Shown: positions 18,401 to 34,168 of the stretch, piece after piece | How the letters are laid out: the number at the start of each line of letters is the position of its first letter | Position numbering within the stretch: the first letter of the stretch is position 1 | NCBI GenBank assembly: GCA_003820375.1 | Contig: RPQH01000016.1 | Location: 11 to 64,010, forward strand | Source of the DNA: Ignavibacteriota bacterium | Lineage (GTDB): Bacteria > Bacteroidota > Ignavibacteria > Tepidaquicellales > OLB5 | Direction: 5' to 3' | Length of the DNA: 64,000 nt | Translations under genes and position numbers: made by a program | Notes under the pieces: model-generated | Databases searched by the model: none | Seen by the model: only the letters and a program-made list of their open reading frames with translations | What the model was told of the DNA's origin: nothing

Positions 18401-18470
18401 GTTCTTTAAGTTCTTTAAGTTCTTTAAGTTCTTTAAGTTCTTTAAGTTCTTTAAGTTCTTTAAGTTCTTT
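18401..18470. repeat. Perfect 9-bp tandem repeat GTTCTTTAA x7, plus a partial unit
   Basis: Direct reading; head-to-tail with no spacers. Confidence 0.95.
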
Positions 18471-18598
18471 TCAGAGGCAGTGTCTGGTCTTAGTTTGAGA
18501 ATTTGGATTAACTTAGATTAACTGATATGTATGCCAGAGAAAGAAAGAACTTAAATTTACAAATATTGACCTGACACAAGCGTCAGCTTAAGATGACC

Positions 18599-18815
18599 GG
18601 ATGATTTACAATCAATGCTGGACAAGGGGTTATTATCAATTAAGAATGAAGAATGAAAAATGAAGAATTGGATGATTTACAATTGTAGTTAGACAAGGGG
18701 TTACTGATATAAATAATTATAAACTGCAATTACATTATTATCTTTATTAACAACTCCAGACTGCGATTAACGAATTACCCCTTGCAAACTATCCGGCTTG
18801 AATGATTTACAATCT
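18599..18815. repeat. Repeat cluster: 71-bp-spaced direct repeats (GATGATTTACAAT-N8-GACAAGGGGTTA x2), a 7-bp array AAGAATG x4 (18642-18669), and an inverted partial third copy
   Basis: GATGATTTACAAT at 18600 and 18671. GACAAGGGGTTA at 18621 and 18692. ATTACCCCTTGC at 18774 and GAATGATTTACAAT at 18801. Confidence 0.75.
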
Positions 18816-19064
18816 GTGTATAAAGCCGCATTTTGCTCATTTTTTACGTAGGAAAACTCCTACAAATGAAAATTTTTCAATTTTTATTTTTTTTGTTTCA
18901 TATCTAACCCTAAAGCCAATCTCAGAATAAATTATTTTCACGACCTGATAAGAACAATTTCGATATTAACAAAGAACGACAGTGAGTGATAACCGGCAGT
19001 ATTTCTCACTACTATATAAAAATAATATAGAGATTGCCGCTTGTCAAGTTTTAACTAAAAATAG

Positions 19065-19109
19065 TTTAGAGTGTGTAGAGTGCTTAGAGTGAGTGGAGTG
19101 TTTAGAGTG
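19065..19109. repeat. 9-bp tandem array (TTTAGAGTG-like x5)
   Basis: tttagagtg tgtagagtg cttagagtg agtggagtg tttagagtg. Confidence 0.85.
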
Positions 19110-19464
19110 GCATTTTGGGCTATTTTGCAGGTAATTATATTAACGCTGCGATAAGCAAGTAAGGATTCCCCTCTTGAGAGGGGTGGACTCCGATGGAGCG
19201 TTAGCGGAAATCGGATGACGGGGTGTGTCCTGAAATAAACCGTGAATACCCTAAAGCATTACTTTAACTCTTCAATTATAGCGACGACAAACCGGTTATT
19301 TTGTTTTATTTTTCCCAAAAACCAGCGGGCAGGAGTGGTTTTTCAAAAACCTCGATTCCTGCATTAAATCGCTATATTTTGGGTGATTTTTGGCACTTTG
19401 GTCAGGAGTTATCTGCTTATACTGCAATGAGTTACAGCCATTTTTCGAAAACTCCTGCCCGGAA

Positions 19465-19530
19465 AGTGCCCGTAAAGTGCCCGTAAAGTGCCCGCTGAGT
19501 GCCCACTGAGTGCCCGCTGAGTGCCCGCTG
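19465..19530. repeat. 11-bp tandem array (AGTGCCCGTAA/AGTGCCCGCTG x6)
   Basis: Units read in register at 19465, 19476, 19487, 19498, 19509 and 19520. Confidence 0.9.
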
Positions 19531-19587
19531 GATGACCGCGGGGTTTTTTACACTCCCATTATAATCTCATTATAAAACTTTATATAC

Positions 19588-20058
19588 TTACGGTATTATT
19601 TTCTTCCTCACTTTAAGATTTGATAATTTAATGTACTCGTAATACCAGCAATGGTTTAGATGGATTCTGATTTTTACCTTAAAGCCCGAAGTATGCGGTA
19701 CCGGAAAATTATGATGCCCGCTTATTGAATTGTAATCTTCTGCATTAAAAGAATTGCTGAGATTATTTTCTTCATCAAAAACCTCTACTGTTAGTGTGTG
19801 TAATGCCGTAGATAATGCTGTATCAAAACGTGATGCATATCCGTCAAAGTCCACTTCATAATCATACTTATCCTGATTTTGGGGAAAATATGTATGCATA
19901 AAAACAGTATCGCCTGCACCATACATTGAAAGCGAATCCAATTTGTAAACAACATATGGGTCTGCATTTTGATTGTTATTAACAATATTATTTTCTCTGC
20001 ATTGAAGAAAGAGAAAAGACAGGGAGAGAATTAATATTTGAATTATATATTTTTTCAT
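19588..20058 (-). CDS. Hypothetical lipoprotein (156 aa from the internal start)
   Basis: MKKYIIQILILSLSFLFLQC is a lipoprotein signal. The longer ORF to 20211 adds an implausible N-terminal extension. Confidence 0.5.
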   Translation of the reverse strand: MKKYIIQILILSLSFLFLQCRENNIVNNNQNADPYVVYKLDSLSMYGAGDTVFMHTYFPQNQDKYDYEVDFDGYASRFDTALSTALHTLTVEVFDEENNLSNSFNAEDYNSISGHHNFPVPHTSGFKVKIRIHLNHCWYYEYIKLSNLKVRKKIIP

Positions 20059-20489
20059 TGGGAAGTGAAGAAAATTATTTTCTTTATTTGAAAAGGCTGT
20101 GAGGATGCCCGGCAATATAATATTATTTGATGCAATTATATTCATGGCATATAAATATGCGAAAAAACTTTGTGAAGATATACTGAAAAAACAAAAGTCG
20201 CCATTTTTCAACTATATTACGGGATTTTCTTTGACAAATTACACCTCAAAAAGTTCAATACTATGCATTAATCGCAGTATTTCAGGAAAATTTGCCTGAA
20301 AATTTTGTGATTTCTGAGAAAATCTTCTTTGACTTAAAATGTGCTAAATCAGTAATTTATTAACATTAAAAACCACATTTTCAAAATGTGATACAGTGAA
20401 AAGCTTTTTTAGAGTTTATTACTGACAATTCTCTTGCTGATGTGGAATATATTTAAACAATAATTATAAATTAAAAAGGAGTTGGGAAT

Positions 20490-20648
20490 ATGAAAGTTTC
20501 TCCATGGCATTCAAAAAAATCCATTGTTTATCATAACAACACAAAATGTACTTTAGGAAATAATATAGAAAGAATAAATAAACAATCGGGAACAGGTGGT
20601 AAACCTATATGTAGTTTATGTTCGAAATTAAATAAAGTTAAGAAATAA
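20490..20648 (+). CDS. Small Cys-containing protein (52 aa; below the ORF-track cutoff)
   Basis: RBS aaaggag lies 8 nt upstream of the ATG. Encodes MKVSPWHSKKSIVYHNNTKCTLGNNIERINKQSGTGGKPICSLCSKLNKVKK, with a C..(20)..CxxC spacing suggesting a metal-binding knuckle. Confidence 0.4.
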   Translation: MKVSPWHSKKSIVYHNNTKCTLGNNIERINKQSGTGGKPICSLCSKLNKVKK

Positions 20649-20727
20649 ACCACTTACTAAAATTTCTTTTGTAGATGAAGATAGGATAATTTTTAATAAC
20701 ATATAAATTTAATAAAGGAGAAATATT

Positions 20728-21006
20728 ATGGCACTTTTAAGCAGCAGAGATCTTAAATATACATATTCTTGGACAGCTTATGAAGGTGACAATCCTAAAA
20801 TAAGCGGTGAACCTGATAATACTTTGTTGAATAGGAATGAGGGATATGAAATGCTTTATTTTATAAATAAGTTCGCTGAGATACACAATTTTATAAATAA
20901 AGAATCCGGACATAAAGTAGAAGAATTGATTAAAACTAAGGTACCTAGCCACATACATTCACAAATAAAAATAAAGGATTGGTTAGTGCAAAATTGGAAT
21001 AATTGA
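20728..21006 (+). CDS. Hypothetical small protein (92 aa)
   Basis: RBS aaaggag upstream. No recognisable domain. Confidence 0.45.
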   Translation: MALLSSRDLKYTYSWTAYEGDNPKISGEPDNTLLNRNEGYEMLYFINKFAEIHNFINKESGHKVEELIKTKVPSHIHSQIKIKDWLVQNWNN

Positions 21007-21071
21007 GTAAAAATATATTGTAAATTAACATGAATAAAAATATTTTATCTTAAATAATATAATAAAATAAT

Positions 21072-21344
21072 ATGCAAACTTTAATTACGTATGATGTAAA
21101 CAAAGATCATACAAAAGTAAAAAAAGCTTTAAAGGAAAAAGGGTATAGAGATATTATTGCTGGGTCTAATAATGTACCCTGTAATTTACCAAATACAAGT
21201 TTATGGAAATCAGGAGTGAGTTTTACAACAGCTCTTTCAGATCTACAGGAAGTTACCCAAAAATTAAATGTTATACTTGAAAGGGCATTCACTGCGGAAT
21301 TTGACAAATGGACAGGAATTGAAGGATTAGAGCATAAAGAATAG
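21072..21344 (+). CDS. Hypothetical small protein (90 aa)
   Basis: The beta-alpha start MQTLITYDVNKDHTKVKKALKEKGY is reminiscent of small ferredoxin-fold (Cas2/VapD-like) proteins, but this is not diagnostic. A terminator follows. Confidence 0.45.
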   Translation: MQTLITYDVNKDHTKVKKALKEKGYRDIIAGSNNVPCNLPNTSLWKSGVSFTTALSDLQEVTQKLNVILERAFTAEFDKWTGIEGLEHKE

Positions 21345-21372
21345 GGCAAAGGCGGTAATACCGCCTTTTAAT
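21345..21372. terminator. Bidirectional rho-independent terminator between convergent genes
   Basis: AAAGGCGG (21348-21355), loop TAATA, CCGCCTTT (21361-21368), flanked by A/T runs. Confidence 0.75.
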
Positions 21373-21405
21373 AAATAATATTAATTATGGTTGTAAATAT
21401 TTCTG

Positions 21406-22584
21406 TTATAATATTTTTTTTCTGAAGTCACGTAAAGCCTGTCTCCAAGCTCTTAGCCAGTTGCCATTGTTTTTTTTCTCTTCAAATAAAATATCTTCTT
21501 CTTCAAGTTCAGTCCAATTGTTTTCAGCTTCTTTTAGCCAAATATTTACATTTGAAAGTGGGTCGTTAGAATCTAAACATTTTTCAACGTTCATGAACCA
21601 ACATAAATAATGTCTCCAACTGTAACCTAACCATGCTTTTTTTGGTTTTTCCTTAAACGATTCTATAATAACATTTCCCCAAAAATTATTTGAAAAATTC
21701 GTATTAAAAAAATGCTCAAAATTATTTTCGTTCAAACGACCAATGTCAGCCTCCCTTAAAAATGTAAGTAAAGAATGTTCAAACCAATATTCTAATTGAC
21801 CGCCACCTTTTTTCGAAGGTTCTTCAAAACGTGATAAAGTAAACCTTCTTAAGTTAAAAAATTTGCCTGTTGCACAATGAGTTGCGCCAGCAACTTTATA
21901 TAAGATCATCTCCGATGAACAAAATGAAATTAATACTTCTTTTCCTGTTGAATTCAATAAATGAATTAATTGCATTGCACCTAAAAGCTCATCTGCTTCA
22001 TCAAGTTCTCTGCGTGGTTCGGTATCAGATATAAAAACAATGTAATATCCACAACATTCCACTTCTGTTAAAATAGAAGCGTAAGTGAATATATTATCTT
22101 GTTTTATTAAGGCTTTCATACTTACCATAACTGTACATAAGATTTCAATTTCAGTATCTCTACTATTTTTATGTAAACTTTTACAGGTTTCAGCACATAC
22201 TTCATAATAGTTCTCGTCAAATAGTTTAGGAAGTATCACAGGTGAAGCAACTTTATTTACATTTAACTTGCTACTAAATTTTATAAGTTTTTTATTTATC
22301 TCATTCCACCAGGGTTTTGAAGCATAATCAGTTGCAGAATCAATATCCTTAGGAAAGTAAGGTTGTTTTATCAAATGTTCTCTTTTTGAGCGCGGAAAAT
22401 AAAGTTGTGGGTCTAATATAATATCTAATTTTTTGTCAGTCTTGTCCGTAATTTTTAACAACTGTTTTTGTAATTCCGCTGGATTTCTATTGACTGGACT
22501 TAAAATTATTCCTTTAAATTCTCTAATGTGTTTTTCACCTACAAGGTTTTCTGTATCATGTCCCATTTGCATATATGAAGCCAT
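21406..22584 (-). CDS. Hypothetical protein (392 aa), third gene of the nuclease-like/kinase operon
   Basis: RBS aaggag 10 nt after the kinase stop. No motif I can assign. Trp-rich helical C-terminus. Confidence 0.6.
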   Translation of the reverse strand: MASYMQMGHDTENLVGEKHIREFKGIILSPVNRNPAELQKQLLKITDKTDKKLDIILDPQLYFPRSKREHLIKQPYFPKDIDSATDYASKPWWNEINKKLIKFSSKLNVNKVASPVILPKLFDENYYEVCAETCKSLHKNSRDTEIEILCTVMVSMKALIKQDNIFTYASILTEVECCGYYIVFISDTEPRRELDEADELLGAMQLIHLLNSTGKEVLISFCSSEMILYKVAGATHCATGKFFNLRRFTLSRFEEPSKKGGGQLEYWFEHSLLTFLREADIGRLNENNFEHFFNTNFSNNFWGNVIIESFKEKPKKAWLGYSWRHYLCWFMNVEKCLDSNDPLSNVNIWLKEAENNWTELEEEDILFEEKKNNGNWLRAWRQALRDFRKKIL

Positions 22585-22594
22585 GTAATACTCC

Positions 22595-23446
22595 TTAATT
22601 AAAAATATTTAAAATATCTTGTGTGTTTATATACCTTTGTACTGGCCATGCAGAAAGCATCTTTAATATATCCTTAAAACCCATTTTTGTTATTTCTATA
22701 ATAAATTCATTTGAACATGGTAATCTGTTTGCAATGTGATTTACTACATTTGAAATATTCATACCGGTTGATTGAAAAGGGTGTTTACCTGTCAAGCAAA
22801 TACCTAATACTATCCCAATTGAGAACTGATCACTTCTCCATTTTATTAAATGTTTTTCGTTATTTAATTGCTCAGGTGAGCTATAATAAGGTGTGCACGG
22901 ACCTTGGGGCATCCAAGACATTGTTAAAGAAGGTAAGGACAAATCTCTAACAAGACCAAAATCAACTAAACTTGGATATTCAGATTTCGTGCTAAACATA
23001 ATATTATCTGGTTTGATATCTCTATGGACTAAATCTAGGGTTTTCAAATGTTCTAATGCTTTTATTAATGCGAACGCATACTTTTTAACATCACTTATAG
23101 GTACTTTCCCATATTTTAATCTATCTGTTAAACAGCCATCGTCATAAAATTCTTCAATTATGTAAATAAAAAGAGTTCCATTATATGCATATTGCCCATA
23201 CTCATGAATTTTTGAAATATATGGACAATCACATTTTTTTATAGCATTTATCTCTCTTGTAGTCCTATCTATACTGATTTTTTGCAGATCAACAATTTTA
23301 AGGGCTATTTCTAGACTGTTGCAAGTGGTAGCCTTGAAAGTTTCTTTAAATGCTCCATTACCGACAAATTTATTATATATTAAATTTAATTTTTTGCAAA
23401 TATCTTTTGCAACATCCTCATATTGTGGATTAAAAGGTTTGGCCAT
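22595..23446 (-). CDS. Ser/Thr protein kinase (Hanks type), catalytic domain only
   Basis: GAFKETF (P-loop-like), IALKIV (VAIK Lys), HRDIKPDNIMF (catalytic loop), VDFGLV (DFG), YYSSPEQ (APE). Confidence 0.85.
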   Translation of the reverse strand: MAKPFNPQYEDVAKDICKKLNLIYNKFVGNGAFKETFKATTCNSLEIALKIVDLQKISIDRTTREINAIKKCDCPYISKIHEYGQYAYNGTLFIYIIEEFYDDGCLTDRLKYGKVPISDVKKYAFALIKALEHLKTLDLVHRDIKPDNIMFSTKSEYPSLVDFGLVRDLSLPSLTMSWMPQGPCTPYYSSPEQLNNEKHLIKWRSDQFSIGIVLGICLTGKHPFQSTGMNISNVVNHIANRLPCSNEFIIEITKMGFKDILKMLSAWPVQRYINTQDILNIFN

Positions 23447-23865
23447 TAGGCATTTTCGATATAGTTATTGGCATGTTCTGTAAGCCAGACCGAATATGGA
23501 CAATTTTTGATTGCTTCGATATGAACAATAATAGAAGATTGATTTATAGTACATAACCCTATTCCTCTTTTTTCAAATTCATCGATAAATTTTAATGCTA
23601 TCGTTGCTGTTTTATCAGGTAGGACCACATAAGAATAATGAGCATAAATTGTGTTTTTATAAGCCTGGTGTAAAGCATCTTTCCATTTATAAAGTTTTGC
23701 TTCAAATGCTATTAAAAAACCATCTTTTGTTATACCTATAATATCAGTTTTTCCGCTTCTATAATTGAACTCAGTAGCGAAATTTAAACATTTGACATTT
23801 TTTTTTCGTGTTGTCTTTAGCTTTTTTTGAAAATCTTTAACTAATTGTGATTCCTTTGTATACAT
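23446..23865 (-). CDS. PD-(D/E)xK nuclease-fold-like protein (139 aa)
   Basis: ATEF...GKTDIIGITKDGFLIAFEAKLYKW fits the E...D...(D/E)xK spacing. Its stop overlaps the kinase start (TAATG). Confidence 0.5.
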   Translation of the reverse strand: MYTKESQLVKDFQKKLKTTRKKNVKCLNFATEFNYRSGKTDIIGITKDGFLIAFEAKLYKWKDALHQAYKNTIYAHYSYVVLPDKTATIALKFIDEFEKRGIGLCTINQSSIIVHIEAIKNCPYSVWLTEHANNYIENA

Positions 23866-24403
23866 TAATATAAAATAACAAATATTAAAAATAAAAGATA
23901 CAACTCTAATGGTATTATTAATTTATTTTTTACTTTTTTTCGTTACTGTTACTCATTATAATAACAATTGTGTCATATTTTTCCATTCCATTGCACATTC
24001 GTAGTTTTTCGTCTCCCTGATAAGGGGGAATAAAAAAGAAACTAAAAACAGTGTTAGGTCTTTCTTGAAAATACAGATAAATTTTAATCATTACCGGTTT
24101 TCCTCTCCGTGCTCTCAGTGTGCTCTGTGGCTATTATCTTTTCATAGGCAAGGGGTGATTATCCATCAATCAAGTTCTGTTATATCTATAAAGATTATTA
24201 GTTATTGTAGATTGTATGTATAATCACGGAATCACCGTCTTGTCCCTAAATCCTCTTTGTGGCAGGGGAGGGGAGTGAGTTCTTCAGTTTCATTCATGGG
24301 ATTGCCACGCTTTCCTTGCTTTATAACAATAAATACTTGTCATCTATTTTTCAGTTCTAATTTATATTCCATTACTTGTTCGAGCTCGCAATTCATTTAT
24401 TGA

Positions 24404-24442
24404 TGTAAAAAAAAGCCGCAATCTTATCGATGGCGGCTTTTG
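24404..24442 (-). terminator. Rho-independent terminator closing the cytochrome cluster
   Basis: AAGCCGC (24413-24419) / GCGGCTT (24433-24439), with an A-run on the plus strand (a T-run on the minus strand) after the stem. Confidence 0.75.
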
Positions 24443-24461
24443 TAATTTTATATCTTATCTA

Positions 24462-25151
24462 TTACGGGTTCTGACCGAAGTTTACTACACCATTCACATG
24501 CAGGTCAGTACGTTTAAATGTACCCGATGAATCCATCACTACACGGTGACAGTCTACACATGTAGTAATTGTGTTATTCGGGTCATGTGTGTACAACGGA
24601 AATGGTTTCGGATTCGGATTTCCTGTAACAGGATTACCATGGCATGAACCGCAAATTACATTTTCCGGCTCCATCCATTTTACAGTCATCTGATTTCCGC
24701 CGGCAAAACCACCATGGCAATATACATCTGCACATGACCGGTCATTTGCATCATACTGCGGATTGGGTATATAACCTCCATATATCCGCTGTTTTGCAAG
24801 CGGTCCGAATGTTATTTCAGCCCTGTTATCAGGATTTGTTCTGTCTATGTGTGTTGAATCCCAATAATTATTTACCGGAATATGGCACTCGCCGCACTCT
24901 ACCTTTGCAGAGAACCTTGTTGCCATTAAATGCTGAACATGAGCACCTACACCCGGGTTGCTCCTGGATGTATCGCCGTTCAATGCTTTAGGCGGGTTCG
25001 GATTGTCGCCTCTTCCGTGGCATAATGTACACTCTCCCGATGACCTTGATGGTGCAAGTATATCATCTTCAAGCTCACTGCATCCCTGGTAAATAAATAC
25101 CAATGCAGTAATTAAAAATAAAACTGAGTATAATTTCATATGTTTTTTCAT
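24462..25151 (-). CDS. Multihaem c-type cytochrome lipoprotein (4 CXXCH + 1 CX4CH)
   Basis: Lipobox VFIYQGC. Motifs CTLCH, CGECH, CADVYCH, CGSCH, CVDCH. The paired CX4CH...CXXCH arrangement resembles the Geobacter-type repeat domain. Start taken at MKKHMKLY, 1 nt after the upstream stop. Confidence 0.8.
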   Translation of the reverse strand: MKKHMKLYSVLFLITALVFIYQGCSELEDDILAPSRSSGECTLCHGRGDNPNPPKALNGDTSRSNPGVGAHVQHLMATRFSAKVECGECHIPVNNYWDSTHIDRTNPDNRAEITFGPLAKQRIYGGYIPNPQYDANDRSCADVYCHGGFAGGNQMTVKWMEPENVICGSCHGNPVTGNPNPKPFPLYTHDPNNTITTCVDCHRVVMDSSGTFKRTDLHVNGVVNFGQNP

Positions 25152-25152
25152 A

Positions 25153-26454
25153 TTACTTGAACCTCCTGTCGCCATCGGTGCTGTTATGGCAGTAACCGCA
25201 GAAACCTACACCGCTGATTCCGTTTGGTCTTGCATTAGCATCACTGTGGCATGTATAACAAATTGCACCCTGTGTTTCGTGCCATATTCCCTTATTATCA
25301 TTTTCAAAACCTGATTCATGTGTTCTCGGGTTAGTACCTTTCACACCGTCGTTATCTATATGGCAAGTAATACAGATGGGGTCACCGCCCTGTGTATCGT
25401 GGCAGCTCTGGCATGATTCAATATCTTTTCTTGCTATTGTAGCATGGAGCCCGCCGCCTGTACCGACACCAAAGGTTGTAAACATCGGCTGTTTATGGCT
25501 GTCAGGTGCAATACTGCTGAGTGTCTGCCCGTTATCGCTATGGCATGTATTACAGAATGTTACAGGGTCATGACAGGTCTTGCACTCAAACCGCTTGTGG
25601 TTTGCGTCAAGCCCGTGTGTGAACCTGTAATTCAGGTCGTGAGCTGTCGTAAGCTTTTGCAGGTCGTGCCTGTCAATTCTTGTAGCCCCTTCCTTGCTGT
25701 AATAAGGAGCGTAGAAGTTTTCGCTTGTATTATTTCCCGTAACGTTTACAGGACTGTGGCATACCTGGCAGAAGTTATCGCTGTGGCACATCATACAATT
25801 ATTCTTGTTTGAGCTTGGGTCAAATACAACCTTATGCTCATTTAAGAAATTAGACTGCCTGTGGCTTTTCGGGAACAGGTTAGTCAGGTTTGTATGGCAT
25901 GATTCACAGTTATTGCCTGCCTGCTGGCTCAAGTTAACTGCCGGCTGGTTCTGCTCTGTATGGCAGGTACTGCAAACTTCCATCGGCGGAAAAGCCGTCG
26001 GTGATTCTTTTGCAAATTTAACATTATCAACGCCAACGTGGCATGCTGTGCATTCCTGCTTTTGTGTAACAACATGGAATTTATGTGAAAAAGCAAGTTC
26101 CTTTTTGGTCGGCGGGAATTTCTTAGCCGCACCTTCAACATGGCAGAAATTACAGTTCTTCTGGTCGGTAACATCGTGGCATGCACTGCATTCGTTATGT
26201 CCGGGGTTCAGGTCATCTTTTGCAGAGACTGAAGTGTTTGCTTTAACGTGGCAGTCTTTACATGCAACGGCAGCTTCTTTTACGTGAAACTTATGGTCGA
26301 ACTTTATTACTTTGCTGTGGTCTTCCTGTGCTGCAGACGGATATACGCTGACTTTCTTCATGTCCGTCTTTGTATCCTTCATCAAATAAGCAGTTGAAGA
26401 TAGAAATACAAGGACACCAGCAAGAAGTAAAAAGTATAGTTTATTAATTTTCAT
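25153..26454 (-). CDS. Periplasmic 14-haem c-type cytochrome (c7/c3-like repeats)
   Basis: 14 CXXCH motifs. Recurrent F.HK.H....C..CH units resemble polymerised c7-type domains. Signal peptide present. Confidence 0.9.
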   Translation of the reverse strand: MKINKLYFLLLAGVLVFLSSTAYLMKDTKTDMKKVSVYPSAAQEDHSKVIKFDHKFHVKEAAVACKDCHVKANTSVSAKDDLNPGHNECSACHDVTDQKNCNFCHVEGAAKKFPPTKKELAFSHKFHVVTQKQECTACHVGVDNVKFAKESPTAFPPMEVCSTCHTEQNQPAVNLSQQAGNNCESCHTNLTNLFPKSHRQSNFLNEHKVVFDPSSNKNNCMMCHSDNFCQVCHSPVNVTGNNTSENFYAPYYSKEGATRIDRHDLQKLTTAHDLNYRFTHGLDANHKRFECKTCHDPVTFCNTCHSDNGQTLSSIAPDSHKQPMFTTFGVGTGGGLHATIARKDIESCQSCHDTQGGDPICITCHIDNDGVKGTNPRTHESGFENDNKGIWHETQGAICYTCHSDANARPNGISGVGFCGYCHNSTDGDRRFK

Positions 26455-26468
26455 AATTTTTTTTATAC

Positions 26469-27776
26469 TTAAAATTTCTTAAATAACCAATAGCTGAAAC
26501 CTGCCATGAAGCGGGTGTCAGTCTTATAGATCCGGTTTTTTATAAATTGTCCCTGTAAATCAATTGTAAACTGCCTGATTGGCCTGTAAGTAATGCCAAT
26601 CATTCCGCTCAGTGAATTTACCTTATCAACAAAATAATCACCAAGCTCGTATCTTGCATAACTGATAGCAGCATTCCCTGAAAGTTTTTCGGGAACTATC
26701 TGGTTTGTGTAATAGGCGTTAATACCGTCAGACTCTCCGGAATATCCCATATATCTTGTAAAGTTAATTCCGAAGTTTGCATGACTGACACCTGCCTGCA
26801 CCCTTATTGAGTTATCATCATCATATATCACATCCGAAACTCTTACGAATGCATTCATACCGTTATTGAAAGTATAATCTGCACCACCTTCGATTTCCAT
26901 GTTCTGCTTATGTGTAAATACCCAGAAAATTGTATTATAAGCTAACTGCGGCTGCCTGTATGTGTAACCGGCAGAGAGGTTCAGATTTTTCATAACGTTT
27001 GTTCTTACATTGAACTCACCGTAATAAAATTTCTTCAGGTTAATATCATAATATGCATTGCCGTAGAAGTTATGTTTTCCGAGGTAAGTATAATTGAAAT
27101 CTAATCCTGCGAGCTGTTCGGCAGGAGTATCATAATCAATTAAAACTTCCTGCAGATTGAATAAGCTGTCAGGACGCAGTGTATAATATGAAGCAAGCTT
27201 ACGGTGCTTGTTGGTGTAGCTCAATGATGCCATAAGGTCTTTCACTCCATAGTAAGCAAACTGTGCACCCACCATGTAGTTTTCCTTGGCTTTAAAATGG
27301 CTAGTGAAGGTATAATCGTAAGGAGTAAGCGCTCCTCCAAAGCCTGTTAACTGAAATTCTTTGTTCTTTCCTGCTTTTATCTTAAGTAATAAACCGTCTA
27401 TTGGTCCTTTGCCAACACCGGCATAAACATACTGCCTGCCTGCTTTTACATCAAGAACGTTGAACAGGTTCGTTCCTTTAATGTACAGGTTATATGCCCT
27501 GTATTTAAATGCATCTTCCGATGTTTTGTTCATCACATCTTCTTCAGCCTGCAGAGATGTATTAAAGCTCCATTGCTTCTGCTGAACTTCAAAAAGAAGG
27601 TTCTGGTAAGCTTTCATGTGGAATGTTTTAGGACCGGCATTTCCTGCTGAGTCAGCAAGAGAGTCAGCTCTTTCCCATCCGTACACATTTGTGCTGAACC
27701 TAAGATTCAAGTTTTGAGAATACAATACAGGTAGTGATACAAAGAAAAGAAAAACAAAAAGTAGTATTTTTTTCAT
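26469..27776 (-). CDS. Predicted outer-membrane beta-barrel (porin-like) protein embedded among the cytochromes
   Basis: Signal peptide, alternating aromatic/polar beta-strand pattern throughout, C-terminal ...FSYWLFKKF. Confidence 0.65.
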   Translation of the reverse strand: MKKILLFVFLFFVSLPVLYSQNLNLRFSTNVYGWERADSLADSAGNAGPKTFHMKAYQNLLFEVQQKQWSFNTSLQAEEDVMNKTSEDAFKYRAYNLYIKGTNLFNVLDVKAGRQYVYAGVGKGPIDGLLLKIKAGKNKEFQLTGFGGALTPYDYTFTSHFKAKENYMVGAQFAYYGVKDLMASLSYTNKHRKLASYYTLRPDSLFNLQEVLIDYDTPAEQLAGLDFNYTYLGKHNFYGNAYYDINLKKFYYGEFNVRTNVMKNLNLSAGYTYRQPQLAYNTIFWVFTHKQNMEIEGGADYTFNNGMNAFVRVSDVIYDDDNSIRVQAGVSHANFGINFTRYMGYSGESDGINAYYTNQIVPEKLSGNAAISYARYELGDYFVDKVNSLSGMIGITYRPIRQFTIDLQGQFIKNRIYKTDTRFMAGFSYWLFKKF

Positions 27777-27800
27777 ATCATTTTATTTTTTAAAATAGGA

Positions 27801-27824
27801 TACGCCCGCAGCTCAGCGGGCGTA
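27801..27824 (-). terminator. GC-rich hairpin (possible intra-operon attenuator or terminator)
   Basis: TACGCCCGC (27801-27809) / GCGGGCGTA (27816-27824). The T-run is better on the plus strand than on the coding (minus) strand. Confidence 0.4.
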
Positions 27825-27839
27825 ATTTTTAATTAACAC

Positions 27840-28403
27840 TTACTTCTTCGGATGCTGAATCTTTGCCCATGCTTCATCAAAGTTGAATGCTTTGAATGTC
27901 GGACTATCAGCATTATGGCATGTTGTACAGAAAGCTGCTTTATCTGAATGCTCAAGTAAACCGTTTGCAACTGCCTGTGCATGGTCTTTCATAATAGACA
28001 TAGATTTATAAGCTGAACCGGGACCGTGGCATGTTTCGCACTGTACACCTTTTGTTTTGTCAAATGTTGCATCAAGCTCAGCTTCTACCAGTTCTTTTCC
28101 AAGTGTATGGCATTTTACGCACTGCGGAGTTTCTGCTGCTGCAGTGGTGAATCCTTTATCTTTAGCTATCTTATCTGCCTCAGGTGTGGTAAGAACTGTA
28201 TATGCCTGTGAGTGTTTTGATTCCTGCCATATTTCGAGCTGTTTTCCTTTTGCATCGCCTTTATGGCACATACCGGCGCATTTATCTACACCGATATATT
28301 TGAAATCACCGGCAGCTTTACCTGTATCACCGGTAAAGGCAGAAAAAGAAATGAAGGCAACTAAAAAGATTATAGTTGCCGGTAAATAAATTTTCTTATT
28401 CAT
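27840..28403 (-). CDS. Tetrahaem c-type cytochrome, cytochrome c554-family-like
   Basis: CAGMCH (CX3CH), CVKCH, CETCHGPGS, CTTCH. Signal peptide present. Confidence 0.85.
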   Translation of the reverse strand: MNKKIYLPATIIFLVAFISFSAFTGDTGKAAGDFKYIGVDKCAGMCHKGDAKGKQLEIWQESKHSQAYTVLTTPEADKIAKDKGFTTAAAETPQCVKCHTLGKELVEAELDATFDKTKGVQCETCHGPGSAYKSMSIMKDHAQAVANGLLEHSDKAAFCTTCHNADSPTFKAFNFDEAWAKIQHPKK

Positions 28404-28552
28404 GGTTGATTAATTTAGTTTGAATAATTCAAGTTAATTAAGTTGGTTAAATAATAAAAGATAAAAAGTTACTTATCTTTATTCACTTGTTATACTTTGG
28501 AGTAGTATTTATTGTTCTTCACTCCAAAATTAAAAAATTGTTGATTACTGCT

Positions 28553-28788
28553 ACCTCACCCCCCAACCCCCTCTCCATCCACGCAGTGCGGGACTTCGCA
28601 AGCTCAGCATAGAGAGGGGGAGATTCTGAGGATTTATACTCTTCTACTCCCTCCTCCACTTGGAGAGGGGAGATTCTGAGCTTTTAAGCTCTTCTACTAC
28701 CTCTCTCCATTTGGAGGAAAGCAAGAAGAATTTTTAATCACCTGCATCTCCCCCTCTCCAAGTGGAGAGGGGGTTGGGGGGGTGAGGT
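28553..28788. repeat. Nested palindromic repeat element inside the cytochrome cluster
   Basis: Outer arms ACCTCACCCCCCAACCCCCTCTCCA (28553-28577) / TGGAGAGGGGGTTGGGGGGGTGAGGT (28763-28788). Two internal units of about 50 bp contain GGAGAGGGGAGATTCTGAG...CTCTTCTACT.CCTC. Confidence 0.85.
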
Positions 28789-28817
28789 TTTAAAAATTTG
28801 CTTAAGACCGCAATATT

Positions 28818-29987
28818 TTAGTTCTTTTTTAATAACCCGTGTTTTTCGAAAAACGGGAAAATTTTATCGAACTGCCTTAAAAGAATAAAAGGTATTGCAA
28901 TAATTAAAACCGATACAATCAATCCTTCTTTATCAAATAAGCCCGGGAAATATTCAGTAAATCCACGCATACTTTTTGAAACGAGCTGACCGCCGATAAC
29001 CACATTCCAGCGCATAAGCAGAACCTGTATCAAAAGCATACCTGAAGATAACCATATCATAAAATTTTTTATTCTTGTGTCGAACTTAAAAAGCGAAGTT
29101 ACGCAAAGCAATAAAAACGGTATAACCGAAAAAACTCCAATTTGCAGGTAGACATATGAAACCAAAAGCTTTCCGTCTATGAGCTCTCTTAAGATTGTCC
29201 ACCTTTCTGTGTTCTCATAAGCAATTGAAAGAACTTCCATAAGCTCAAGCACAACAGCAATAATCATAAATCCCCACAGCCATTTTCCCATAAGATTTAG
29301 GCATTCCTGGTCAACCGGTTTTTTTCTCAGCCAGTGTACAAACTGGTATAAAAATATAAGAACAGAAAGACCCGATACTATTGCCGAGAAAATGAATATG
29401 ATGAACATAAGCGGTGTTGACCACCAGAGATTAGCTTTAATTGAACCAAAAAGAAAACCGACGTAACCGTGAAGTATGCATGCAACCGGGATACCGAAAC
29501 CTGCAAGGAAAATAATAAGCTTTTTATCAAACTCTTTTGCTTTATCAGATTTAACGGTAACACCCATTGTAAGAATATAATAAAGCTTCTTCATAATACC
29601 GCGTGAGCTGTTATACTTGTCTATGATTTCTTCACGGTAGCAAAACCAGACTTCAAGAACAACAATCAGCAGGTAAAAAGTATAAACAAAGCCAAAGCCG
29701 CTCATAGCAGATGAAAAATTCGGTGTTAGCATTATATTCATTGCACGCATCGGGCTTCCAAGATGGTTTAAAAGCGGCACCGTTGCAAACAATAAAAATG
29801 CAAGTGATGATACAAGCGCAAACTTGGCAATCGATTTCAGCTTTTCCATACCAAATACATGATAGAATGAGGATACTATAAAAGCTCCCGCCACCATACC
29901 TGTTATATAAGGATACAGCACTATCATGACTGTCCATGTTATATGCAGTTCATTCGGGAATACAAAACCTTCAGCAATATGTTCCAT
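28818..29987 (-). CDS. NrfD/PsrC-family polytopic membrane quinol-interacting subunit
   Basis: About 10 TM helices. The N-terminus W.VMIVLYPYITGMVAGAF is typical of the NrfD family. Its start overlaps the FeS-subunit stop by 1 nt. Confidence 0.85.
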   Translation of the reverse strand: MEHIAEGFVFPNELHITWTVMIVLYPYITGMVAGAFIVSSFYHVFGMEKLKSIAKFALVSSLAFLLFATVPLLNHLGSPMRAMNIMLTPNFSSAMSGFGFVYTFYLLIVVLEVWFCYREEIIDKYNSSRGIMKKLYYILTMGVTVKSDKAKEFDKKLIIFLAGFGIPVACILHGYVGFLFGSIKANLWWSTPLMFIIFIFSAIVSGLSVLIFLYQFVHWLRKKPVDQECLNLMGKWLWGFMIIAVVLELMEVLSIAYENTERWTILRELIDGKLLVSYVYLQIGVFSVIPFLLLCVTSLFKFDTRIKNFMIWLSSGMLLIQVLLMRWNVVIGGQLVSKSMRGFTEYFPGLFDKEGLIVSVLIIAIPFILLRQFDKIFPFFEKHGLLKKN

Positions 29988-30778
29988 TATTTAACTTCCT
30001 TATCTAATCCAATATAATAACATTTAGGATTTGTACCGAGCTCAGCTTTAAGTAAACCATATCTTCTCTGGTTAAGGATTTTCCTGATTTTACTGTTCGG
30101 GTCTTTAAGATTACCGAAAATTCTTGCATTACGCGGACATGCATTAACACATGCGGGCGCTTCACCTTTATGAATACGGTGATAGCACAGTGTACATTTA
30201 TCGGCAATTCCTTTTTCTTCATCAATGTACCTGCATCCATACGGGCATGCCTGGACACAGTAGCCGCATCCAACGCAGCGTTCCTTATCGATTAGCACAA
30301 CACCATCGGGTGATTCATATGACGCTCCCACGGGACATACCTGTGTGCATGCAGAATCATAACAATGGTTGCACAGCTTTGGTACAAAAAATGCTTTTAC
30401 AATATCATTGCTGTCGAAGTTATCCGATTGGAAACTTTCAATTGCACCTTTGGGAGAATCAACTCGTATCTCGCCTTTGCTGTCAATCTCATATCTTTCA
30501 ACCCATGTTCTGAAATAAGATTCGGGGACATTGTTCTCAACCTTGCATGCTCTTACGCATGCTCCGCATCCGATACATCTTGTTGTATCAACAATAAAAC
30601 CCCAGTCATATTTAAGCAAGTCTTCATAGTTATCTACAACAATATCCTTATCTCCCTTGCCAAAAGCGAAGAACGAACCGCAAAGTACGCCGGCAGCAGA
30701 ATACAGACCAAGCCTTAGAAACTGGCGGCGTTCCATTTTCGCAGACTCTGAATCGTTTAGTTTTTCTTCTTTTTCCAT
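29987..30778 (-). CDS. Tat-exported 4x[4Fe-4S] ferredoxin-type subunit (NrfC/PsrB-like)
   Basis: Twin-arginine motif RRQFLRLG. Four Cys clusters: CIGCGACVRAC, CNHCYDSACTQVCP, CVGCGYCVQACP, CTLCYHR...ACVNACP. Start taken at MEKEEKL rather than the extended ORF to 30841. Confidence 0.88.
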   Translation of the reverse strand: MEKEEKLNDSESAKMERRQFLRLGLYSAAGVLCGSFFAFGKGDKDIVVDNYEDLLKYDWGFIVDTTRCIGCGACVRACKVENNVPESYFRTWVERYEIDSKGEIRVDSPKGAIESFQSDNFDSNDIVKAFFVPKLCNHCYDSACTQVCPVGASYESPDGVVLIDKERCVGCGYCVQACPYGCRYIDEEKGIADKCTLCYHRIHKGEAPACVNACPRNARIFGNLKDPNSKIRKILNQRRYGLLKAELGTNPKCYYIGLDKEVK

Positions 30779-30791
30779 GATGTGTTTGAGA

Positions 30792-32060
30792 TTAATGACA
30801 TTGTTTACAAAAATCTTCCTTATGACATTTAGCACATACATCTTTTCCCTTTTGGGAAACTACATCCTTATGGGTTTCTTCAAATCCTTTAGGATGTGGT
30901 ATTTCAACTTTATGGCAGTTTGCACATGAGTTCTGCTTGTGACAGAATTCACATGAAGACTTATTTTGAGCTGCTGACTCCGGGTGCAGCTTAGACCAGC
31001 TTGGTACATGCGATACCGGCTTTGTTTTCAAATGGCATGATGAACACTGGTTAGTTGTATGGCACTTCTGGCAAAGCTGCGAATTATCCTTTGTAAAACT
31101 TTTATGCTCACGTGTCCAATTTTTAGGATGAGGGTCTTCTTTAGTATTCTGATTCATGTCGTGAATCTGGTCAGCATGGCATTTCAGGCAAATTTTCTCA
31201 TCTGATTTTTCAATAATATTCAGGTTGCCGATATGCGACGGCCAGTCTATCTTCGGCGGATACTTTTCATCCTTGAATGATTTTTTCTCATGGCATAAGA
31301 GACAGAACTTTACATTTCCGTTTTTATATATCCTGCCTGTAGTCTCATTTTCTTTATGATATAAATGGCACGTTCTGCAGTCAATATATTTATGATGCGG
31401 ACGCACCTCAAAGCTTTTTACAACACTTGAATGACAGTCTTTACATTCAAATATTGCAGGATGGTCTGCAACTTCTTTAAAGCTTTTTTCGGGTTTCTTG
31501 TTATGGCATTCAGTGCATTTATACACTATTGGGTGAATGCGTGACTGCTTTACTTCCGTTAAAAGAAAAACCGGCTCATGAGGACTGTGGCACTCTATAC
31601 ATTTGGTTCCCTTATTGGTTACATTAAGGAATTTATAGTGCTCGTCCTGGTCAATCTGCGGAAAATCACTCGGCCTGGCTTTAAGCTTTCTGTGACAGAA
31701 GAGGCACCCTTCCAGCTTGAATTCTCTTGGCATTACAGCCTGTTCTTTTGTAATTGTGCCAAGGCTGTCTTTATGATAAGTTACGTGCAGGTTACCTGCT
31801 CCATGGCAATCAACACATGGTACATTATAATGAGCATCTTTACCGTGAAGCTGGTAAATCCCCTCATGACAACTTTTGCATGTGTTGCTGTTTTGGTTTA
31901 TTATCGGTAGTGCACGGTTCTGGTTATTTGCTTCCCACCTGTAATGACCATGCAGCCCGAAGTTTTCAGGCAATGCAATCTGCCGGGCAATAAAACCAAT
32001 TACTCCCAAAACCACGATGATTGAGAAAATCCTCACAATATGTGATTTATCTTTAAACAC
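30792..32060 (-). CDS. Membrane-anchored 15-haem c-type cytochrome
   Basis: N-terminal TM helix and 15 CXXCH motifs. The protein ends in ...CKQCH. Confidence 0.9.
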   Translation of the reverse strand: MFKDKSHIVRIFSIIVVLGVIGFIARQIALPENFGLHGHYRWEANNQNRALPIINQNSNTCKSCHEGIYQLHGKDAHYNVPCVDCHGAGNLHVTYHKDSLGTITKEQAVMPREFKLEGCLFCHRKLKARPSDFPQIDQDEHYKFLNVTNKGTKCIECHSPHEPVFLLTEVKQSRIHPIVYKCTECHNKKPEKSFKEVADHPAIFECKDCHSSVVKSFEVRPHHKYIDCRTCHLYHKENETTGRIYKNGNVKFCLLCHEKKSFKDEKYPPKIDWPSHIGNLNIIEKSDEKICLKCHADQIHDMNQNTKEDPHPKNWTREHKSFTKDNSQLCQKCHTTNQCSSCHLKTKPVSHVPSWSKLHPESAAQNKSSCEFCHKQNSCANCHKVEIPHPKGFEETHKDVVSQKGKDVCAKCHKEDFCKQCH

Positions 32061-32107
32061 AATATTTAGAATAAGTTTATAAGAATATTTTTAAGAAAAA
32101 ATTAATA

Positions 32108-34168
32108 TCATTTTATAGATTTAAGTTGTTTAATTTTTTCGGATAATAGGGAGCTCAACAAATCATAATTATGAACATAAATACTCTGGTGCGATGAAAT
32201 ATCGTTAATTATTTTTCTTGTTTCTGTTACTATTGCCTGCTGTTCGCTGTCTAAAGGCATGCCTTTAACTTTTGCAATTTCAGATTCAGCTTCTTTTACT
32301 GCATCTTTAATTTCTTTTTTCCAATCGTTCGCCATTCCTTCATATGAGTTATCATGACATTTTATGCAAATATCATTTTTCGGCTTTATTACATTATCGC
32401 CCTGAGAATGGCAATCTATACAATGTACGCCGCCCTGCTTCATGAAATCCGGCTGGTTCTTCTTGAAATAATTACCGTCATAAACGGATACCTGGAACTC
32501 ATGACACTTTGCACAGGATTCATTGGTCTTCCCTGATGAGTGGTGGCAGCTATTGCAGTTTTCCTTGCTTACAATTAATTTTCCATGGTCCTGTTCATTT
32601 GAATGGCATTTTGCACAGGCTATTCTCTCTTTTACTATATGAAGATTATGAGAGAAATTCATATCATACTTTTTAACGTTGATTTCCTGTATTCCTGAAT
32701 GACAGTTGTAACATTCATTTGGTATCAGCTCAGAGCTAGATTCAAATGCAGGAAGATTGACCGGTGCACCGATAATCGACATAGATTTTTTCATAAGATT
32801 GTAACCGGCTATTAACAGCTTATCGGCAAACTGCACGTTGTGAACGCTTTTTCCTACTTCTACTATTCTTATATTATGGTTTGCTTCATCCAGTGCCTTT
32901 ATTGCTTCCTGTTTGTTGCTGCTTTTCGAATTATAAACCTGGAAGCTTACTGTATTATAAATTGATTTTATTAATGCTACTCTTTTTCCTGAAGCTATTT
33001 CCCACTGTTGTACAAGCCTGTCATATCCTTTTCCGTGGCATTTATCGCACGAGCTTCCGCCGGATTTTGATGTCGTAATATCTTTCTTATCTGTTTCATG
33101 AAATACATGGCATCCTTTGCAGTTTATTCCGTTCATATACATTACGCTGGGTGATTTATCGACGTTGAACCCGTTTTCTCCTGTATATAAACTTACCTGT
33201 GATGTGTGAGCATTTGTATGACAGCTCTGGCAATCAGGCGGGCTGTTTGGGTCAATTTTTTGAATTTTATGCTGTATCTGGCTGTGGCATGTGAAACATT
33301 TCATGCTGTGCTTGGTAATATGAGTTGTATGCATGAACTCGGTATCATCATACCTGTCGAGACGCACTGTTTCAAAATGGCACTGGAAGCATCTTTCTTT
33401 TCCTACTTCACCATTGCCTGCTACTACATTAGAATGGCAATTATTACACTGTATGTTGTTACTTACAACTGATGTATGGTCATACCTGAAATTTGCCATC
33501 TGAATTTTTGATTTGTCACTCCAGTTATGGCAGGTTTTACAATCGGTCAGCTTATCCCATTTATGTTCGGGATCATCTGATTTTTTGAAATGACAATTAA
33601 AGCACGTTGCTTCGGTTACTTCAATATGAGAGCCCTGAACAATCTGTGAATGGCAGCTTGTACATTTAAGCGTTTTGCCCCTCCTCAGGTCTGCCAGGTG
33701 ATTCTTATGGTTAAACTTTATTCCTTTAAAATCATAAGTAGTATCCTGTAAAGCCTGCTTTTCATGGCATCCGCTTCTTGCACATGTGTTATCCGGTATT
33801 TCAGCCCATGGTTTGCGTTTCTTGTAAGACATGGATACGTAATTCACAATCTGAACCAAACCGTTTAGCTTTCCTCTTACAGTTCCGGAAATTCCGGGTT
33901 CAAAATGGCACTCTACGCAATCTATTTTATTATGGGCTGAAGTTCTCCAGCTCTGGTAAAAGGTTTCCATGTAATGACACGTAGGGCAGAAGCTGGGTCT
34001 TGATGTATATTCAGCCGCTGCTGCTGTTATAATAAGCAGGAGCAAAAGAGTTGTTACAGTATATTTTGAAATTCTTATAAACTTAGACCCGCGCTTATAA
34101 AAATCACGAACAGATTTATAAGCCCCCGATAATTTTTTCCCGGTATTTTTAAGTATATTATTTCCCAT
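32108..34168 (-). CDS. NapC/NirT-like membrane-anchored multihaem cytochrome (17 CXXCH + 1 CX4CH)
   Basis: TM helix followed at once by CPTCH...CVECH (NapC/NirT-like entry). CARSGCH. Two helical inserts containing VHNVQFADKLL and VHNYDLLSSLL. Confidence 0.85.
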   Translation of the reverse strand: MGNNILKNTGKKLSGAYKSVRDFYKRGSKFIRISKYTVTTLLLLLIITAAAAEYTSRPSFCPTCHYMETFYQSWRTSAHNKIDCVECHFEPGISGTVRGKLNGLVQIVNYVSMSYKKRKPWAEIPDNTCARSGCHEKQALQDTTYDFKGIKFNHKNHLADLRRGKTLKCTSCHSQIVQGSHIEVTEATCFNCHFKKSDDPEHKWDKLTDCKTCHNWSDKSKIQMANFRYDHTSVVSNNIQCNNCHSNVVAGNGEVGKERCFQCHFETVRLDRYDDTEFMHTTHITKHSMKCFTCHSQIQHKIQKIDPNSPPDCQSCHTNAHTSQVSLYTGENGFNVDKSPSVMYMNGINCKGCHVFHETDKKDITTSKSGGSSCDKCHGKGYDRLVQQWEIASGKRVALIKSIYNTVSFQVYNSKSSNKQEAIKALDEANHNIRIVEVGKSVHNVQFADKLLIAGYNLMKKSMSIIGAPVNLPAFESSSELIPNECYNCHSGIQEINVKKYDMNFSHNLHIVKERIACAKCHSNEQDHGKLIVSKENCNSCHHSSGKTNESCAKCHEFQVSVYDGNYFKKNQPDFMKQGGVHCIDCHSQGDNVIKPKNDICIKCHDNSYEGMANDWKKEIKDAVKEAESEIAKVKGMPLDSEQQAIVTETRKIINDISSHQSIYVHNYDLLSSLLSEKIKQLKSIK

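Follow-up and report, generated by a model that had tools for sequence, protein, structure and literature searches.

Anode biofilms, iron-rich springs, aquifers and wastewater reactors commonly harbour Ignavibacteria. For Ignavibacterium album, Shi, Fredrickson & Zachara (2014) listed the genes IALB_1837-1840 as a porin-cytochrome (pcc) cluster distantly related to the others, with IALB_1839 as the porin, IALB_1838 as a 14-haem cytochrome of about 400 amino acids, the largest periplasmic cytochrome of any Pcc, IALB_1837 as a cytochrome of the outer membrane that has an atypical haem motif, and IALB_1840 as an extra periplasmic cytochrome (PMC4245776). Described here is a 64,000-nucleotide stretch of DNA from an Ignavibacteriota bacterium (contig RPQH01000016.1 of assembly GCA_003820375.1; hereafter the window), in which four genes on the minus strand (28403 to 24462) probably encode a Pcc-type conduit for respiratory electrons across the outer membrane, orthologous to IALB_1840-1837. 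The core module is already known, the same gene set having been reported in 2014 in the related I. album, and the window cluster joins the known Ignavibacterial Pcc group.

According to Table S1 of the 2014 survey, IALB_1839 shares 19-20% identity (35-39% similarity) with the OmbB group, as opposed to 11-12% with the other groups of Pcc porins (PMC4245776). The Geobacter complex encoded by ombB-omaB-omcB consists of a haem-free 45-kDa barrel and cytochromes with a total of 20 haems (PMC4282303). With a hidden Markov model (HMM) seeded by OmbB, Arbour et al. (2020) detected what they called 'OmbB-like PCCs' among Ignavibacteria (PMC7399161), and Fortney et al. (2018; PMC6137239) and He et al. 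(2019; PMC6344600) likewise reported OmbB-like proteins or OmbB-OmaB-OmcB homologues in this class. The Ignavibacteria that carry OmbB-like PCCs had become enriched on anodes and under Fe(III)-reducing conditions (PMC7399161, PMC6137239, PMC6344600). A study of 2021 described a seven-gene cluster of one barrel and six cytochromes, with best matches in Bacteroidetes and Ignavibacteriae, as 'previously uncharacterized' (PMC8258643). The multi-omics paper on Melioribacter roseus contains nothing on multihaem or outer-membrane proteins (PMC5492636).

The four-gene module and its conservation

All four open reading frames (ORFs) are confirmed, and their gene content and motifs were established directly. 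In the direction of transcription they encode a c554-family tetrahaem cytochrome with a signal peptide (g187, 27840-28403), a 435-residue predicted outer-membrane β-barrel (g435, 26469-27776), a c-type cytochrome with 14 haems whose N-terminus is a signal peptide or an anchor (g433, 25153-26454) and a lipoprotein cytochrome (g237, 24462-25175). These are the counterparts of IALB_1840, of IALB_1839 and OmbB, of IALB_1838 and OmaB, and of IALB_1837 and the OmcB role, respectively. A gap of 14 nt separates g435 from g433 and one of about 0 nt g433 from g237. The barrel bracketed by three cytochromes that a first-pass annotation had described was thus found at exactly the positions given there. 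In public records the barrel protein is 100% identical to the hypothetical protein EHM58_05330 of an 'Ignavibacteriae bacterium' metagenome-assembled genome (MAG), and the neighbouring records RPI18476-RPI18479 bear no more specific names than 'cytochrome C', 'CxxxxCH/CxxCH domain-containing protein' and 'cytochrome C554'.

When one genome per species was scanned with a degenerate pattern, 60 loci with 61 barrel genes were obtained; related loci are denoted below by L and a number. Nearly all of them are labelled Ignavibacteria, Ignavibacteriae or Ignavibacteriales, and a few Bacteroidetes or Chlorobi OLB5. The 14-haem gene follows the barrel gene after 10-21 nt in 60 of the 61 cases and is itself followed by the lipoprotein cytochrome gene in 58, while 53 of the 56 loci with enough sequence have the c554 gene immediately before the barrel gene. 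This conservation of order, likewise established directly, is far beyond chance, since all barrel genes except one precede a 14-haem gene at such short distance. The MAG L040, labelled I. album, shows the same four-gene arrangement, its proteins being 49-58% identical to those of the window, and the same gene set is present in Ignavibacterium sp. L052.

The cytochromes

The 14 CXXCH motifs of g433 are all invariant both in 36 and in 45 aligned homologues, as are at least 12 extra histidine residues. The N-terminal third is c7-like (Pfam C7, E 1.2e-16; PDB entry 3OV0, E 3.5e-22 for residues 47-189) and comprises two F.H..H...C..CH units. Of the earlier description as a 14-haem protein built from c7-like units the haem count therefore stands, whereas the rest of the chain is not demonstrably c7-like. 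The protein is proposed to be a haem wire threaded into the barrel. Two ActA matches (template modelling score, TM, about 0.2) returned by Foldseek for a structural model of g433 were discarded as evidence on account of the poor quality of that model, which is given below.

The lipoprotein cytochrome g237 possesses a lipoprotein signal peptide ending in YQG↓C and five haem motifs, namely four CXXCH and C148-X4-CH. In agreement with the paired CX4CH...CXXCH arrangement noted before, it scores above the cutoffs of both PF09698 (27.1 bits, cutoff 21.7) and TIGR01904 (43.7 bits, cutoff 27). The real start is probably Met9, at about 25151, as homologues begin with MKK and one collection holds a 229-residue version. 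An N-terminal dihaem module is missing in g237, which leaves five motifs as compared to seven in most relatives; the L047 protein has nine. In g237 and its homologues from L001-L060 the residues following the lipobox are conserved as ...YQG↓C-S-[EK]-[LIV]-[DE]-[DN]. In Bacteroidetes, acidic lipoprotein export signals such as SDDDD, SDDFE or K-(D/E)2 direct surface exposure (PMC5080379), and the conserved sequence resembles such a surface export signal. By this likeness g237 is proposed as the cell-surface end of the conduit.

The tetrahaem cytochrome g187 carries three CXXCH motifs and one CX3CH motif and matches Pfam Cytochrome_C554 (PF13435, E 1e-14) and Nitrosomonas cytochrome c554 (PDB code 1BVB, E 7.6e-5), as expected from its first-pass assignment as a c554-like tetrahaem protein. 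The first haem site reads CX3CHK in 48 relatives and CXXCHK in 11, and this interchange makes the fourth haem site of g187 credible. It is a probable soluble periplasmic electron shuttle.

The barrel

The barrel protein g435 has an N-terminal signal peptide, no cysteine and the C-terminal sequence ...YWLFKKF, which is conserved among 34 homologues with Trp430 and Phe432 invariant. An AlphaFold2 model based on the alignment of these 34 sequences is all-β, with a mean predicted local distance difference test score (pLDDT) of 78.8, a predicted TM score of 0.67 and 24 strands as assigned by DSSP, and so upholds the signal-peptide-bearing barrel with C-terminal phenylalanine that had been predicted. 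The turns on the putative periplasmic side are 2-5 residues long and the loops on the putative outer side 2-17, the segments of low confidence coincide with loops, and no plug is present; the size of the barrel and its lack of plug-forming loops are thus direct readings of the model. With standard geometry (n = 24, S = n + 2) a Cα radius of about 22 Å would result, compared to about 23.5 Å for the 26 strands of MtrB. A plugless barrel of about 24 strands that lacks long loops makes an unlikely nutrient porin and suits a haem-wire sheath, and the model leads us to propose g435 as the sheath of the 14-haem cytochrome.

Searches of g435 against Pfam, NCBIfam and the PDB sequences matched no family, and the barrel profile gave only spurious matches to PDB sequences (E >1). 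Among 59 family members (34 + 25) Pfam found no MtrB_PioB domain at E <= 1 and weak matches to the LptD barrel in four. The family is nevertheless large, with 199 close homologues and 409 representatives, each standing for a cluster at 50% identity, in an exhaustive HMMER search. It includes a divergent branch with members from Zixibacteria and Fidelibacterota, which hhalign aligns to the Ignavibacterial barrels over 384 columns with 100% probability and an E-value of 5e-58; a profile search started from this branch reached Zixibacteria and Fidelibacterota and no Geobacter protein, and a cluster look-up of its members named only Zixibacteria besides metagenome proteins. In a Zixibacteria genome the barrel gene is followed by genes for a c7-type cytochrome and a CX4CH-domain cytochrome, and in a second distant lineage the barrel has one NNT-type and one c554-containing cytochrome as neighbours, besides two more cytochromes. 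Since both distant barrels are flanked by cytochromes, the link between barrel and cytochromes holds across phyla in the members checked.

The trans-outer-membrane conduit that the first-pass annotation had proposed is hence well supported by comparative and structural-model evidence, namely the kept gene order, the cytochrome-flanked distant barrels and the barrel model. The place of the 14-haem cytochrome inside the barrel, the location of the lipoprotein at the cell surface, the direction in which electrons flow and the identity of the feeding inner-membrane module are inferred.

Several points weigh against the conduit or against its assignment. The best Foldseek matches of g435 in the PDB are substrate porins (OccAB, the OprD family and AlgE). 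The AlphaFold2 model of g433, computed from 45 sequences, is poor (mean pLDDT 49.7) and confident only for residues ~45-165. Orthology to IALB_1837-1840 is drawn from the matching architecture and from the I. album-labelled MAG L040. Homology of the barrel to the Geobacter Pcc porins depends on the published 19-20% identity and on the HMM matches of others. Finally, the direction of electron flow is unreadable from sequence.

The first of these points raises an alternative in which the barrel is a diffusion or uptake channel, with no cytochrome inside, for a soluble substrate that is reduced in the periplasm, for example selenite or tellurite, polysulfide, chelated metals or humic analogues. 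Besides the Foldseek matches, it could draw on a weak similarity of g187 to ExtS, which belongs to an operon for the reduction of selenite and tellurite (E 1.9e-4, far under the cutoff), and on the fact that the barrel family is without any structure showing an enclosed cytochrome. The fits to the substrate porins are poor (TM 0.29-0.45, root mean square deviation 9.6-16.5 Å), as is expected of an 18-strand barrel overlaid on part of a larger modelled one. With 24 modelled strands instead of 16-18 and neither long constriction loops nor a plug, an empty g435 would be a very large open hole. Moreover, the coupling to the 14-haem gene is tight (60 of 61) and reaches other phyla, and a purely periplasmic scheme leaves nothing to do for a lipoprotein cytochrome whose motif resembles a surface export signal. 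A channel of this kind is therefore regarded as very improbable. An assignment to the ordinary substrate porins (OprD/Occ, general porins, FadL or AlgE, with 14-18 strands and a constriction loop or plug) was rejected on account of the 24 modelled strands, the loops of <=17 residues and the poor superposition; an OprD- or FadL-like fold, the finding that the first-pass annotation had set against a conduit, was thus not obtained.

A second alternative leaves the conduit untouched and concerns the origin of its barrel, which would not be homologous to OmbB or any other sheath but an invention of the Fibrobacteres-Chlorobi-Bacteroidetes (FCB) superphylum that converged on the same gene order. The lack of any Pfam, NCBIfam or PDB sequence family for the barrel is in line with this, as are the Ignavibacteria, Zixibacteria or Fidelibacterota affiliation of all identified members (few named among the 409 clusters; no Geobacter) and the position of IALB_1839 outside all five Pcc porin groups of Shi et al. 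(PMC4245776). On the other hand, IALB_1839 is closer in identity to the OmbB group than to the other Pcc porins, as cited above (PMC4245776), the OmbB-seeded HMM recovered Ignavibacteria porins (PMC7399161), and the taxonomy stems from the top 150 of the 409 representatives, so that OmbB-like proteins may be among the remainder. Independent origin is accordingly the less probable explanation, yet one to be taken seriously. Equally tentative is the broader proposal that the barrels of Ignavibacteria, Zixibacteria and Fidelibacterota are a separate sheath family of about 24 strands, belonging to an FCB form of extracellular electron transfer (EET) of its own with a surface cytochrome exported through a Bacteroidetes-type lipoprotein signal, a terminal, mineral-facing multihaem cytochrome delivered by the type IX secretion system (T9SS) and a sigma-54 two-component switch.

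The spacer between tetrahaem cytochrome and barrel

The spacer between g187 and the barrel gene contains, at 27801-27824 on the minus strand and exactly where it had been annotated before, a G+C-rich stem-loop. Its 9-bp stem, in which seven pairs are G-C, closes a loop of 6 nt, and a weak U-tract comes next. The minimum free energy of the spacer (63-69 nt) is -19.9 kcal/mol, the centroid structure consists of the hairpin alone (-18.7 kcal/mol), and folding is stronger than in shuffled sequences (z = -3.7). A partial terminator or a 3'-end stabiliser is possible. Among 52 c554-barrel spacers of relatives, about 13 measure <=12 nt and leave no room for a hairpin, while about 20 are long and strongly folding. 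An obvious G+C-rich stem-loop directly after the c554 stop codon is seen, for example, in L036, L037, L043, L046, L050, L052 and L058. Overall, roughly a third to 40% of the relatives have a stem-loop after the c554 gene and many have none, with spacers of 0-12 nt; the stem-loops of different relatives are analogous, their sequences being non-homologous. The hairpin is thus not a conserved part of the system, and its suggested role in setting the stoichiometry is plausible but weakly supported, stem-loops occurring in only a subset of relatives. Such hairpins, together with c554 duplications in other loci, would fit a need for more shuttle than outer-membrane parts.

Tandem c554-type genes before the barrel, or a doubling of the whole four-gene module, occur in L006 (4621-13500), L007, L008, L009, L021, L027, L044 and L049, with two complete tandem modules in L006. 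In L002, L003, L004, L029 and L047 the structured c554-barrel spacer of about 200 nt contains the common sequence TTCCCGGTTTTTCTT(T/G)(C)GGAGGAGAA, possibly a regulatory RNA that has been conserved, or else a site bound by a protein. An Rfam search of 24000-43000 gave no match, and a scan for sigma-70 promoters and terminators was overall not above shuffles.

The upstream gene cluster and its neighbourhood

The four genes form the distal, outer-membrane end of a run of 15 genes that all point the same way (42211 to 24462, minus strand), most of them overlapping or lying close together, and that encode 104 haem motifs in total. At the start of the cluster (36295-42211) a 116-residue protein, a 635-residue cytochrome with 19 haem motifs, three cytochromes b561 and a 356-residue cytochrome with nine haems are encoded. 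The b561 proteins are Ni_hydr_CYTB/FdnI-like and the two multihaem cytochromes each have a C-terminal transmembrane helix, so that these genes look like split CbcL-like inner-membrane modules together with the operon start. They are followed by g716 and g686 (32108-36308), the former with 20 CXXCH motifs, the latter with 17 CXXCH and one CX4CH, both with NapC/NrfH-like membrane-anchored N-termini, which makes them candidate quinol dehydrogenases or periplasm-spanning wires. Adjoining the pcc genes, g422, g284 and g389 (28818-32060) encode a 15-haem membrane-anchored cytochrome, a Tat-exported NrfC/DsrO/TtrB-like 4Fe-4S protein and an NrfD-like membrane protein, a candidate quinol:cytochrome oxidoreductase module. 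Judged by family membership, it is plausible that the split CbcL-like, CymA/NrfH-like and Qrc/ACIII-like modules are quinol-oxidising or quinone-reducing.

These upstream modules are retained to different degrees. A homologue of g686 (NrfH-like, 17 haems) is found upstream on the same strand for 37 of the 61 barrel genes, and an NrfCD module near the pcc genes in only eight of the 60 related loci. In L040 equivalents of the small protein, the large multihaem cytochrome and the cytochrome b of the window cluster are encoded directly before the c554 gene, and L063, a complete genome of 3.6 Mb, likewise has them before the c554 gene, with one NNT-type multihaem cytochrome in between.

In L063 the cytochrome maturation genes ccmC, ccmE and ccmF (13913-17511) lie within about 2 kb after the lipoprotein cytochrome gene, and the window contains a gene for a CcmF-type haem lyase at 15970-18327 on the plus strand; their presence near both clusters makes the maturation genes look like members of the ancestral neighbourhood. 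Between ccmF and the pcc genes of the window extends a stretch of low G+C content (~18400-24400; 0.28-0.29 as compared to 0.39-0.43 in the cytochrome cluster), with genes for a kinase-like HRDIKPDN protein (22595-23446), a 392-residue protein without Pfam match (21406-22584) and a 139-residue protein. Relative to L063 this stretch looks like an insertion.

The 414-nt gap between the NrfD-like and the c554 gene (28404-28817) harbours four G/C-rich palindromes CCCCTCTCCA-NN-TGGAGAGGGG with a period of 51 nt, flanked by a perfect 19-nt inverted repeat (28559-28577 and 28763-28781). The palindrome pattern has no other match in the window. The array looks like a repetitive extragenic palindromic (REP) or miniature inverted-repeat transposable element (MITE), or a set of RNA stem-loops.

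Sigma-54 sites and the T9SS cytochrome

About 45 nt upstream of the first cluster gene the minus strand contains a sigma-54 -24/-12-like element, TGGCACTATAATTGT (TGGCAC-N5-TTGT, 42256-42270), the sole match in the window at <=1 mismatch. A similar element, TGGCAC-N5-ATGA, is located on the plus strand (49399-49413) upstream of a T9SS cytochrome gene. At <=2 mismatches the pattern is not enriched in the window, with 32 matches found and 44 expected. In L040 the counterparts at 6331-6345 and 13678-13692 are better-matching sites at the same positions, the one before the first gene of the cluster being perfect. Two regulators are encoded nearby, a sigma-54 activator of the NtrC type at 47843-49213 and a PAS histidine kinase at 53755-54972. 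Control of the cluster by sigma-54 is likely on the basis of these sites.

The T9SS cytochrome (49507-51603, plus strand) comprises 698 residues with nine CXXCH haem motifs and matches to Por_Secre_tail and CHU_C. T9SS-tailed multihaem ORFs with 6-9 CXXCH motifs occur at <=10 kb from the barrel in 15 of the 60 loci, and in Ignavibacterium loci such a gene directly follows that of the lipoprotein cytochrome; L040 has one at 13677-15134 and L063 one at 1-2070. The 698-residue protein is possibly an extracellular partner of the conduit. Two more T9SS sorting-domain proteins are encoded on either side of the regulator and the T9SS cytochrome (46483-47745, minus strand; 51742-52551, plus strand), one of them containing BNR/Ycf48-like repeats, and with these further tailed proteins the organism clearly uses the T9SS route. 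In the searchable literature no paper linking T9SS with multihaem cytochromes or EET was found. The export-like motif on the lipoprotein cytochrome, the T9SS-tailed multihaem neighbour and the sigma-54-type promoter sites appear to be new.

Proposed electron path

In the proposed conduit, quinol would be oxidised at the inner membrane by at least one of the upstream modules, that is, by b561 proteins with anchored multihaem cytochromes, by the NrfH-like 18- and 20-haem proteins or by the NrfCD-like pair with the 15-haem cytochrome. The c554-type g187 would then shuttle the electrons across the periplasm to g433, whose 14 haems would form an insulated wire inside the barrel of about 24 strands. 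At the cell surface the lipoprotein cytochrome, with five haems (seven in most relatives), would take over the electrons and pass them on to extracellular acceptors, for example Fe(III) or Mn(IV) oxides, humics or electrodes, possibly via the T9SS-exported multihaem cytochrome.

The same complex could run inward, with electrons from Fe(II), a cathode or a syntrophic partner reaching the quinone pool or periplasmic reductases, like in MtoAB or PioAB. The architecture of such conduits is neutral as to direction, MtrAB-type and Pcc-type clusters being found in both reducers and oxidisers (PMC4245776). In addition, He et al. reported Cyc2 homologues in Ignavibacteriaceae MAGs (PMC6344600), and cytochrome b561 and NrfD modules are able to act as quinone reductases. 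Cultured relatives and enrichments, however, indicate Fe(III) or anode reduction (PMC7399161, PMC8258643), and the cluster contains no genes for a cbb3 oxidase, a nitrate reductase or another obvious acceptor module of high potential. Inward flow is for these reasons considered improbable.

Read as an outward conduit, the window contains an unusually complete candidate pathway on one strand, from quinol modules and shuttle to the 14-haem wire in its barrel and the lipoprotein cytochrome at the surface, adjoined by a T9SS-tailed multihaem cytochrome and a sigma-54 regulator. The members examined of the large, unannotated barrel family (409 clusters at 50% identity) adjoin multihaem cytochromes, and the family would be a useful EET marker in metagenomes of the FCB group. 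Most worth following are the T9SS, export-signal and sigma-54 observations and the barrel family.

Comparison with known electron conduits

To the I. album cluster IALB_1837-1840 the window module corresponds gene for gene in all four components. As in the I. album group, a cytochrome with 14 CXXCH motifs lies by the barrel, the CXnCH motif of the outer-membrane cytochrome is atypical, and upstream a further periplasmic cytochrome is encoded. In contrast to the I. album cluster, as read from L040, the cytochrome b genes of the window are separated from the c554 gene by about 14 kb in which further cytochrome modules of the inner membrane and the periplasm are encoded. Furthermore, its lipoprotein cytochrome lacks the N-terminal dihaem module of the I. 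album type (five versus seven haem motifs).

The only solved relatives of g433 concern its N-terminal ~140 residues, which match the dodecahaem 'nanowire' GSU1996 (3OV0, E 3.5e-22) and ActA of alternative complex III (E about 1e-10 to 1e-11). Both are periplasmic or part of an inner-membrane complex and not barrel-associated, and the C-terminal two-thirds of g433 are without solved relative.

Membership in the MtrCAB/MtoAB/PioAB group was rejected, as g435 gives no match to PF11854 at E <= 0.01 and none to MtrB among the PDB sequences, and g433 none to MtrA/DmsE (TIGR03508); for the OmcA/MtrC family (TIGR03507), with a cutoff of 209 bits, g433 scores 26 and g237 21. A Cyc2-type fused porin-cytochrome was dismissed for want of any cysteine in g435. 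With Shewanella MtrCAB the module would share the principle of an insulated haem wire in a large barrel with a surface lipoprotein cytochrome as cap, and it has a similar number of about 20 haems, while the barrel differs (about 24 strands in 435 residues as opposed to 26 strands in ~700), the gene order is another one and no sequence relationship was detected. The first-pass statement that the parts are unlike MtrAB is in keeping with the absence of MtrB_PioB, DmsE/MtrA and, for the barrel, 6R2Q matches.

The further statement that they are also unlike the Geobacter Pcc proved overstated in view of the ombB-omaB-omcB gene order, the PF09698/TIGR01904 domain and the prior listing of the I. album cluster as pcc. 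Barrel, periplasmic multihaem and lipoprotein multihaem genes are adjacent in the order of a Pcc, and the barrel is haem-free, its 24 modelled strands being slightly above the 18-22 predicted by HMM for Pcc porins (PMC4245776). With OmbB-OmaB-OmcB the module has in common the gene order, the haem-free barrel of ~45 kDa, the CX4CH/CXXCH domain of the Geobacter outer-membrane cytochromes and, in L006, the tandem module duplication. The outer-membrane pair contains 14 + 5 = 19 haem motifs as compared to 20 haems (8 + 12) in the Geobacter Pcc. Differences are found in the upstream gene, which is of c554 type in the window and a TetR-type regulator in Geobacter, in the likely sigma-54 control of the window cluster, in the barrel with about 24 modelled instead of 20 predicted strands and in the cytochromes, which are not orthologous at family level. 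Not MtrAB-like by sequence, the module resembles the Geobacter Pcc, with which it has already been classed, in both its proposed working and its gene order.

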